Assembly: GCA_964439885.1 (NCBI GenBank)
Contig: CAYTPE010000003.1
Coordinates: forward strand, 1-47,968
Reading direction: 5' to 3'
Origin: an uncultured Gammaproteobacteria bacterium
GTDB taxonomy: Bacteria > Patescibacteriota > Patescibacteriia > Magasanikbacterales > GWA2-37-8
Length of the DNA: 47,968 nt
The notes below the pieces were generated by a model. That model saw nothing but the letters and a program-made list of their open reading frames with translations, made no database searches and was not told the origin of the DNA. How positions within the stretch are numbered: the first letter of the stretch is position 1; every line of letters starts with the position of its first letter. Below, one piece after another: positions 43,086-43,977 of this stretch. The position numbers and the translations under genes are program-made.

Positions 43086-43257
43086 CCTCTAAGCGCACAC
43101 AAGTTGCGCGCAAAGGAATTGTGCCCCGCTATTTGAAAAGCCGCGGGGCGGGCAGTTGTTGAGCGCTGCCCTGTGTGCTAGCGCAGTACTAGCCGCGGGC
43201 ACTCATTCGGCTCATACAAGCTGGCGCCCTTCCGATTCCAAGTTCGCGCACGAAGTA

Positions 43258-43728
43258 CTACCTCTGTCGCTTGTTGGGTCGCAGCCAGCCGTCCGTGAAC
43301 ACTACCCTCGGATATTTCCGGTCGTAGCTGGGAATGTCCAGGTAGGGGTGCACCTCCTTCAGGCCTCTGCGGATGTCGGCGATGCTCCCCTTGCCCATAC
43401 CCTTGATCTTCAGCAGCTCCTTCTCAGAGCTGCTCACAATCTCGCCGATGTAGATGATGTGAGCATTCTGCAGGCAGTTGGCCGGCCGTACCGAGATGCA
43501 GAGCTCGTCAACTCTCATGTCGAGAAGACGCCACAGTTCCTCGGTGGGCGGCTTGCCCTTCGGTGCGTCACCCGAGCGCTCGATGACCGCAGTCGTTGCC
43601 GTCAAGAGGTCAAGGACCAGGCCGGGCGCCATTGGGCCGCTCACGACGAATCGGTACACACCACTATCCTCGCGCACCTCGATCGTGCGTCCGGATTCCG
43701 TTCGAATGCTGGCGCTCAAGATCTGCAT
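43258..43728 (-). CDS. Orphan protein with an RNA polymerase alpha C-terminal-domain-like HhH module
   Basis: [47 protein letters not shown] resembles alpha-CTD. The ATG at 43728 follows a GGAGG. G+C is about 60%. The ORF-track GTG start is at 43752. Confidence 0.7.
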   Translation of the reverse strand: [156 protein letters not shown]

Positions 43729-43977
43729 TGTTGCCTCCACGTTAGCTTGCACAAAGACTACGCCGTGTAGTCGATGTGGTTGGCAGTAATTATATTAGAA
43801 ATTTCATTTTAGTGAATAGTATTTTACAAAATCATAAAGTAATTTATTTAAAATAAAGCTACTAATATACAAATTATAATTATTTGTAAATTTAAATTGA
43901 CACAAAGTAACTAAAGTGGTACCGTAACCAACAACACAATTTCTTTCCCCCCAATGGGGGGAGGAGCATTCTCAAAT

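Follow-up and report, generated by a model that had tools for sequence, protein, structure and literature searches.

An orphan RNA polymerase alpha-CTD gene in an apparently hypervariable, GC-rich slot beside a TrmB-family regulator gene

The stretch of DNA discussed here, called the window below, is contig CAYTPE010000003.1 of assembly GCA_964439885.1 at its full length of 47,968 nucleotides (nt). It constitutes a chromosomal origin region, with dnaA, dnaN, genes for RNR, trigger factor, H+-PPase, PolA, holA and RmuC, and three true parS sites (45423-45438, 45684-45699 and 46066-46081; the 16-bp palindrome TGTTTCACGTGAAACA with a CACGTG core). The subject of this study is a gene on the minus strand of the window (43258-43728), which encodes a 156-amino-acid (aa) protein carrying the C-terminal domain (CTD) of the RNA polymerase alpha subunit (alpha-CTD), together with the place that this gene occupies in the chromosome. 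On one side of it lies the gene for a DUF378 membrane protein (42681-42899, minus strand; Pfam DUF378, 71 bits), and on the other side, beyond an AT-rich spacer (43795-43977), the divergent gene for a TrmB-family helix-turn-helix (HTH) regulator (43978-44775, plus strand). The longest open reading frame (ORF) of the regulator begins at 43954, but comparison with its relatives makes the ATG at 43978 the probable start. Two tRNA genes, tRNA-Arg(cct) (44766-44838) and tRNA-Ala(cgc) (44995-45066), follow the TrmB gene in this order.

An initial annotation of the window, made by eye, had placed an ORF from 43728 to 43258 on the minus strand with GGAGG 5 nt before its ATG, and both the coordinates and the spacing were reproduced. 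The ATG is at 43726-43728 and the Shine-Dalgarno (SD) sequence at 43734-43738, while an alternative GTG start further upstream (43752) has no SD and falls inside a leader hairpin. This 5' leader hairpin, GACUAC-ACGGC-GUAGUC (43756-43772, minus strand; RNAfold), has a possible outer stem CACA/UGUG and is weak by itself (z -1.5). It is preceded by a sigma-70-type promoter (43789-43816, minus strand; -35 TTCACT, 16-nt spacer, -10 TATAAT; 10 of 12 positions matched in the scan). The alpha-CTD gene is thus real, intact and well signalled.

The gene is also the compositional outlier of the contig. Its guanine + cytosine (GC) content is 0.603, against a mean of 0.473 (standard deviation 0.023) in the 38 other genes of the contig (z 5.7), and its GC content at third codon positions (GC3) is 0.796 against 0.497 (standard deviation 0.062; z 4.8), the highest value among the others being 0.62. 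Nowhere in the contig is the GC content over 700 nt higher than in the stretch that begins at 43091. In line with this, the tetranucleotide distance ranks 19th among 946 windows (z 2.9), and the synonymous-codon likelihood (z -2.1) is lower in just one of the 39 genes. Because the 172 nt of non-coding DNA behind the stop codon (43086-43257) are also at 0.59 GC, the deviation is a property of the DNA segment and not of codon choice alone. The spacer toward the TrmB gene, in turn, is at 0.29-0.30 GC. The description of a foreign-looking segment of about 60% G+C, bordered by an AT-rich spacer shared with a divergent TrmB regulator (Pfam TrmB, 58.3 bits), therefore holds.

The alpha-CTD is genuine. 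Residues 67-125 match Pfam RNA_pol_A_CTD (PF03118) over profile positions 9-67 of 67 with 57.9 bits (E 8.6e-16), well above the gathering threshold of 23.8, so that the whole domain is covered; the top PDB matches are all RpoA CTDs (best E 3.4e-11). Residues 56-120 align with Salmonella and Escherichia coli RpoA without a gap, residue n corresponding to E. coli n+184, and 27 of the 65 positions are identical (42%). The reading of this helix-hairpin-helix domain as an RpoA alpha-CTD is thus sustained, whereas the wording that the two agree almost residue for residue is too strong. R265 of E. coli, the DNA-contacting Arg that had been singled out, is conserved as R81, and N268, C269, G296, K297 and S299 are conserved as N84, C85, G112, K113 and S115, respectively. 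Changed positions include K298 (G114), E261 (C77), D259 (E75) and V287 (K103). The alpha-CTD is the docking point for upstream promoter (UP) elements and many activators. The residues that contact UP-element DNA in E. coli are R265, N268, C269, G296, K298 and S299; five of these six are kept, and K298 is Gly. E261 and V287 belong to the contact patches for sigma and CAP.

The layout of the protein comprises an orphan N-terminal module (residues 1 to about 52), a Pro/Lys-rich linker (about 53-66), the alpha-CTD (67-125) and a basic C-terminal tail (126-156). A Pro/Lys-rich flexible linker also precedes the CTD in RpoA; however, the protein differs from RpoA in its orphan 65-aa N-terminal module, its basic 30-aa tail and the lack of the alpha N-terminal domain (alpha-NTD), the interface for RNA polymerase assembly. 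Residues 1-70 have no Pfam match even at E 10, and when aligned locally with three RpoA NTDs they score no higher than shuffled sequences do (z about 0), in agreement with the earlier statement that the N-terminal part of about 70 aa is not an alpha-NTD. The housekeeping context rpsK-rpsD-rpoA-rplQ is not present at the locus, the neighbours being DUF378 on one side and TrmB and the tRNA genes on the other. Since the protein has no alpha-NTD and its gene lies outside that ribosomal-protein cluster, it is not the housekeeping RpoA, and without an alpha-NTD it cannot assemble into RNA polymerase. A 5'-truncated rpoA, with the N-terminus as the tail of alpha-NTD domain 1, was considered and rejected on the basis of sequence: the corresponding offset gives only 5 of 55 identities, the NTD alignments are at z about 0, and the full-length rpoA models of NCBIfam align to residues 57-127 only, stopping at residue 57. 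A single-sequence AlphaFold2 (AF2) model drew the N-terminal module as three strands and a helix followed by the linker, at a mean confidence (pLDDT 42) that makes it unreliable.

In a word-indexed search of 5.8 billion protein clusters the alpha-CTD protein returned only itself, as a cluster with one member on one contig, namely the window. An exhaustive HMMER search of 1.84 billion representatives gave 2919 proteins at E<=1e-3; among the matches listed, all those overlapping the CTD lie between about residues 26 and 153, and residues 1-25 are not covered by any. One further match (P0037) covers residues 17-45 only and appears spurious. Neither a donor nor a full-length relative of the protein was found in 15 billion proteins. 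Searches of phage and plasmid collections with tblastn gave ordinary rpoA CTDs only, and viral contigs yielded no relatives. A phage or plasmid origin was rejected on these grounds, none of the three proteins tested from this chromosomal position, described below, having relatives in viral contigs.

The best HMMER matches are mostly proteins with 2-11 copies of the alpha-CTD, often beside a sigma-70 region-4-like HTH. Among the closest is P0017 (44% identity), a protein of Candidatus Uhrbacteria, a member of the candidate phyla radiation (CPR), with two CTDs behind a non-alpha N-terminus. Such metagenomic proteins, for example the two-CTD protein KKT70548.1 of Candidatus Uhrbacteria, resemble the protein of the window in carrying the alpha-CTD outside RpoA, also in the CPR, and with 43-45% identity they are as close to it as real RpoA CTDs or closer. 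They differ in the number of CTD copies and in their other N-terminal regions, none of which is the N-terminal module seen here. Alpha-CTDs outside RpoA are thus already common in metagenomes, the CPR included, and what the present protein adds is a unique N-terminal module. To our knowledge, no function has been assigned to the multi-alpha-CTD proteins. Another point of comparison is NCBIfam NF005841 (PRK07758), small (about 95-aa) free-standing hypothetical proteins with an alpha-CTD-like fold; the match is weak (E 2.5e-4, residues 83-125), and at 21 bits against a family cut-off of 115 the protein is not a member.

The tandem alpha-CTD proteins form a large and apparently uncharacterised population in their own right (for example P0002, P0004, P0028, P0045, P0067 and P0130). 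They are frequently fused to the sigma-70 region-4-like HTH, with the motif TRERIRQIE...RLR, and in the HMMER search at least about 148 of their clusters (50% identity) came out ahead of ordinary RpoA.

The contig belongs to the CPR and is Magasanikbacteria-like; the adjoining TrmB gene identifies the lineage. The closest species-level relative of the regulator is from a metagenome-assembled genome of Ca. Magasanikiibacteriota (70% identity), and its 223 homologues at E<=1e-30 are spread over Magasanikbacteria and other CPR; the 120 best of them that were listed are 57-83% identical. A scan of JGI metagenomes with the TrmB alignment found nothing. The TrmB locus was compared in 14 related genomes, with assemblies from NCBI, ENA, Logan and JGI; the loci are designated L001 and so forth. 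TrmB, tRNA-Arg(cct) and tRNA-Ala(cgc) are conserved, and the left flank usually consists of RmuC, a pair of extracytoplasmic function (ECF) sigma factor and DUF4349, and/or DUF378, the last being syntenic in L002, L004 and L006. In the closest relative (L002), DNA similarity to the window ends at 42915, in DUF378, and restarts at 43977, at TrmB; the flanks are 71-80% identical, whereas the stretch 42915-43977 has no DNA match. The alpha-CTD gene is absent from all 14 relatives, so that the same gene at backbone G+C, which would have spoken against an acquisition, was not seen, and no gene in this position in the relatives encodes an alpha-CTD.

Other genes are found there instead. In 12 of the 14 relatives a gene that is a local outlier in GC or GC3 lies immediately upstream of TrmB, in divergent orientation. 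These genes, referred to as cargo, encode proteins of 246 aa with a zf-HC2 domain in L001 (GC/GC3 0.576/0.725; backbone GC 0.47), 126 and 206 aa in L002 (0.604 and 0.531; 0.47), 147 and 255 aa in L003 (0.579 and 0.560; 0.49), where the two genes are just 11 nt apart, 87 aa in L004 and L005 (GC/GC3 0.557/0.705; 0.48), 72 aa in L006 (GC/GC3 0.594/0.808; 0.46), 154 aa in L007 (0.563; 0.389), 178 and 201 aa in L008 (0.551 and 0.607; 0.404), 178 aa in L009 (0.443; 0.348), 344 aa in L010 (0.576; 0.442), 135 and 105 aa in L014 (0.439 and 0.494; 0.344) and 188 aa in L015 (GC/GC3 0.624/0.804; 0.50). Their GC content is mostly 0.55-0.62 and largely independent of backbones of 0.39-0.50. By BLASTP the cargo proteins are mutually unrelated save for two pairs, none of ten tested has a Pfam domain, and none matches PHROGs or PADLOC. 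The cargo protein of L010, like the alpha-CTD protein, is a singleton among the 5.8 billion clusters, and the clusters of the others have 1-3 members, which come from CPR assemblies throughout. Since cargo recurs at strain level, these genes are not assembly artefacts.

This comparison bears on the simplest objection, namely that high-GC reads were stitched into a low-GC contig. The sharp GC steps at both borders and the uniqueness of the sequence are what a chimeric assembly would produce. However, both flanks are syntenic (DUF378 on one side, TrmB and the tRNAs on the other), so a chimera would require two junctions 0.7 kb apart leading back into the same genome; independent NCBI, ENA, Logan and JGI assemblies carry analogous GC-rich inserts at the same place; and the start codon is correctly placed behind an SD, a leader and a promoter of the type found at this locus. 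A chimera is accordingly considered very improbable. The islet described by the initial annotation is GC-rich and foreign in composition, as stated, but it does not stand alone: at present it fills a slot whose contents are replaced time and again. In our judgement it is very likely that a real orphan alpha-CTD gene resides in a hypervariable GC-rich slot, and this slot is a more unusual finding than the alpha-CTD gene itself.

What surrounds the cargo is far more constant than the cargo. When the divergent spacers of ten genomes were aligned and then read on the cargo strand, a block carrying the TrmB promoter (TTGTAAATTTAAATTGACACAA; TTGTAAATTTARATTGACACAA; -35 TTGACA at 43897-43902 in the window) was conserved in all 10, and a second block, TGTRAATA, equally conserved in all 10 aligned genomes, was found about 75 nt from it; TTGTAAATTTAAATTGACAC is likewise a conserved block. 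On the cargo strand TGTRAATA is the -35 element of a sigma-70-type promoter. A 5'-proximal leader hairpin is present in 8 of the 10 genomes; seven relatives gave z-scores from +0.2 to -4.8, five of them at -2.4 or beyond. The common order on the cargo strand is promoter, short hairpin leader and SD, after which a coding sequence (CDS) begins that differs from genome to genome. In close relatives the leader sequence is kept almost to the SD although the CDSs are unrelated, and in L007, L008 and L010 a common long terminator hairpin stands directly after unrelated CDSs. Because the leader is conserved almost up to the SD, the terminator is shared and the CDS is unrelated, it is for the most part only the coding segment that is replaced.

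At the 3' end of the alpha-CTD gene, the three stacked GC-rich hairpins reported after the stop codon are present within 1 nt of where they had been placed (43093-43111, 43124-43148 and 43150-43171, minus strand, in the tail 43086-43257), and the 221-nt tail folds better than all of 200 shuffles (z -3.7). Neither tail nor leader matches an Rfam family at E<=1. A 3' tail shared between the window and the L001 cargo was considered and discarded, the two tails having no sequence relationship. Next comes an AT-rich, perfect 12-bp hairpin with a T-run on the coding strand (43045-43085, minus strand; arms 43051-43062 and 43074-43085, 12/12 complementary), which is probably, to judge from inverted repeat and fold, the intrinsic terminator of the alpha-CTD mRNA and the distal border of the GC-rich segment. 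With so few G-C pairs in its stem, it escaped a simple scan for terminators. The hairpin had also been described as a copy of the parS arms, and this part of the claim was borne out only in part, without statistical support: the 9-mer AAATGTTTG occurs 3 times against 1.4 expected, a count that 22% of shuffles reach, and the hairpin (43051-43085) has no CACGTG core, unlike the true parS sites.

Taken together, these observations lead to the following explanation, to which, as a whole (orphan alpha-CTD gene, slot, acquisition and function in trans), we assign a probability of about 0.5. The slot between DUF378 and the divergent TrmB gene keeps its promoter, hairpin leader and SD, and in some lineages its terminator; the CDS between these elements is exchanged from genome to genome for unrelated GC-elevated orphans. 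The alpha-CTD gene would have been acquired horizontally and then be expressed from the slot promoter, possibly under the control of TrmB. A horizontal origin is probable, with an unsampled pool of about 60% GC as the source: the composition is deviant, the gene is absent from the relatives and the flanks are syntenic. The transfer from a high-GC donor proposed earlier agrees with the composition and the singleton status, but "recent" was only a supposition, and in other lineages some of the slot cargo has persisted through speciation. As for the protein, it might act in trans by occupying AT-rich, UP-element-like DNA or by titrating factors that dock on the alpha-CTD, thereby modulating transcription. 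Action in trans appears the most likely mode because there is no alpha-NTD, the 265 determinant, which binds DNA in the minor groove, is mostly kept (R265, N268, C269, G296 and S299), a linker is present and the regions upstream of promoters in this genome are very AT-rich; even so, a role of the free alpha-CTD protein as a trans-acting modulator or decoy is put forward only tentatively.

Several points weigh against this explanation. The loss of K298, which in E. coli is among the key residues for DNA contact, and the replacement of the sigma and CAP contact residues E261 and V287 by Cys and Lys do not favour the proposed activity, and the unreliable AF2 model gives no fold for the N-terminal module. 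The window ORFs scanned include no recombinase, no direct repeats flank the islet, and no donor, integrase, att site or otherwise recognisable recombination site was found. Furthermore, not all cargo is unrelated: the cargo of L004 and L015 is homologous (33% identity, E 7e-11), as is the L008b/L014 pair (54% identity), and two distant loci, L016 and L017, have a small conserved TrmB-proximal ORF at backbone GC with GC-elevated genes adjoining. For this reason replacement is to be regarded as frequent and not universal, with fast divergence explaining a part of the picture. Moreover, the members of the L008b/L014 pair differ in GC content (0.607 and 0.494, respectively), which hints at amelioration or at a local GC-raising process. 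Finally, the gene has no homologue and could be a neutral passenger.

According to this last alternative, a hotspot of recombination or insertion captures arbitrary foreign DNA and the ORF is a recently captured piece of a larger multi-alpha-CTD or alpha-like gene, functionless in its present cell. Such an origin is conceivable given that the closest CTDs are in multi-CTD proteins, and it would suit a singleton without relatives in which K298G has removed a key DNA contact, a slot whose cargo is overwhelmingly orphan, and a segment in which 172 nt of GC-rich non-coding tail came with the gene. Against it stand 156 intact codons (by our own arithmetic, the probability that a given frame of random sequence at such composition is open over this length is about 0.006), a strong and correctly spaced SD exactly behind the resident promoter and leader, a GC3 far above the GC content at second codon positions (GC2), which is a coding signature, a Pfam match to profile positions 9-67 of 67, which takes in the complete fold, and the recurrence of the relatives' cargo in strain-level clusters. 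A passenger gene is thus possible, with the odds rather against it.

The proposal that an orphan alpha-CTD gene was acquired into the slot and acts in trans has also to be compared with a role in biological conflict. Acr-aca loci consist of anti-CRISPR genes beside a conserved gene for an HTH regulator, and like these loci and other hotspots flanked by core genes, the slot sets a conserved HTH regulator beside small, unrelated genes of fast turnover under a conserved promoter. By this analogy, the cargo might be effectors or anti-effectors directed at phages, mobile elements or the bacterial host of this episymbiont, and the alpha-CTD protein would be aimed at the transcription apparatus of the opponent. 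Toxin-antitoxin and defence-type genes, for AbiEii (L004, L005 and L008), HicA and Fic (L008), occur in the variable region of relatives, and of the three cargo proteins in which a domain can be recognised, two have to do with transcription, namely the alpha-CTD protein and the L001 protein with its zf-HC2, an anti-sigma-type finger. However, neither PADLOC nor PHROGs gave a match to any cargo, no relatives of the three tested cargo proteins turned up in viral contigs, TrmB is a syntenic core chromosomal gene outside any mobile element, and the alpha-CTD protein has no secretion signal. In addition, the slot differs from acr-aca loci in being divergent, chromosomal and beside tRNA genes, and a link to CRISPR, phage or defence was not found. 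A conflict function is therefore judged unlikely.

Integron cassettes and Xer-dependent dif modules provide another comparison, since they too are one-gene units of deviant GC content exchanged behind a resident promoter, and other CPR islets end in a palindrome, CTTGTTGGATCCAAGAAG, with a GTTRRRY-like core. The attC site has the structure R''-L''...L'-R' with RYYYAAC / GTTRRRY, and an array of at least 2 attC sites without an integrase is termed CALIN. The slot differs from these systems: the window has no integrase or recombinase, no R''/R' pair of the attC type and no detectable palindrome at the islet, and the L003 slot holds its two cargo genes only 11 nt apart. An integron cassette was rejected on these grounds, no canonical attC core pair being apparent on reading the tail, for which no dedicated attC model was run.

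The palindrome deserves description. The unrelated cargo of L001 and L006 ends in one and the same 18-mer, CTTGTTGGATCCAAGAAG, at the GC-to-AT boundary. It belongs to a quasi-palindrome, CTTGTTGG(AT/TA)CCAAGAAG, found at L001 8933-8950, L006 6524-6541 and L009 7722-7739 and also in L022, L026, L030, L034 and L037, where it lies at the distal GC-to-AT boundary of unrelated GC-rich islets of one gene each; a GYGCGC(AC) hairpin precedes it, an A-rich stretch and a terminator follow it, and the GTTRRRY-like core is GTTGGAT. It may be a recombination or protein-binding site. A metagenome scan for the 18-mer gave 28 exact matches, roughly the chance level by a rough estimate, and viral sequences gave none. 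Five of the 28 (L022, L026, L030, L034 and L037) repeat the context, with GC 0.63-0.65 upstream and 0.32-0.38 downstream, the GYGCGC hairpin and the terminator; they lie at unrelated loci, where the GC-rich segment has a different single ORF. That the palindrome is a widespread element was accordingly rejected, the matches being at about chance and only five sharing the islet context. Islets of one GC-rich gene that have a 3' module in common thus recur in low-GC genomes of the CPR type. The tail of the window was also considered as a diverged CTTGTTGGATCCAAGAAG module, the order of elements being similar, but a Smith-Waterman scan of the whole window scored it at 15-20 against 22-24 by chance elsewhere. 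Because this unbiased scan does not single out the tail, the window islet is not assigned to the CTTGTTGGATCCAAGAAG class.

A bolder synthesis would be that the Magasanikbacteria group carries "expression sockets" (promoter, leader, SD and terminator at TrmB, with a second one between parS sites), into which external GC-rich CDSs are swapped independently of integrases, the free alpha-CTD being a plug-in effector that reprograms transcription of the cell or its bacterial host in competition for UP elements or for factors that bind the alpha-CTD. This is speculative, and we rate it slightly below the conflict function.

If it is what it appears to be, a natural free alpha-CTD, with a linker and without an assembly domain, is a natural experiment in the trans-modulation of transcription, and it occurs in the CPR, in which gene regulation is almost unstudied. 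The slot may matter more than the gene, as a fixed position beside a conserved regulator that hosts differing GC-rich orphans across a CPR lineage. It offers a comparable locus for learning how symbionts with reduced genomes gain and turn over accessory genes, and from whom.

Some further observations concern the slot and its surroundings. The order TrmB-tRNA-Arg-tRNA-Ala is also found in L001, the sole relative with a tRNA scan, and in the window the start of tRNA-Arg(cct) overlaps the 3' end of the TrmB gene, 10 nt before the stop codon (44766-44775). The AbiEii gene, with an upstream partner gene, and the HicA and Fic genes flank the TrmB-tRNA block in variable regions (L004 5156-6431; L008 6176-7589 and 8228-9941). 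The AbiEii gene of L004 extends into the cargo ORF and has apparently cut it short, to 87 aa against 188 aa in the L015 homologue. A second TrmB-family paralogue also has a divergent GC-rich neighbour (L004 11670-13438, L001 13461-15083 and L009 6411-7683), namely DUF3865 in L004 (GC 0.62) and L001 (about 0.60) and an ORF of 118 aa with elevated GC in L009; a TrmB-type regulator with a divergent GC-rich gene may thus be a repeated module. The window itself has a second GC-rich islet (about 0.6 GC, 45745-46055) between two of its parS sites, with an ORF (45771-46001, plus strand) for a 76-aa lipoprotein-like protein (MKKRMSHVGFLMVVMASGC...), its own promoter, a small hairpin and GAGGAGG before it and a GC hairpin after it. 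In L003 the same parS-flanked position holds a different GC-rich lipoprotein-like ORF (135 aa, 8452-8859) without detectable similarity, and this position looks like a second variable slot. Several GC-rich islets, L006 1639-2445 (minus strand), L037 1687-2349 (plus strand) and L034 304-813 (plus strand), encode beta-strand-rich proteins with a signal peptide that resemble small outer-membrane beta-barrels; such proteins are unexpected in the CPR and are possibly a sign that the donor had two membranes. Lastly, short tandem-like repeats, TTAAGATA(T/G)TGTGATA / TTAAGATAGTAAGATA, occur in 4 copies with an 8-nt register at 42997-43028 of the window, between the DUF378 promoter and the terminator hairpin.

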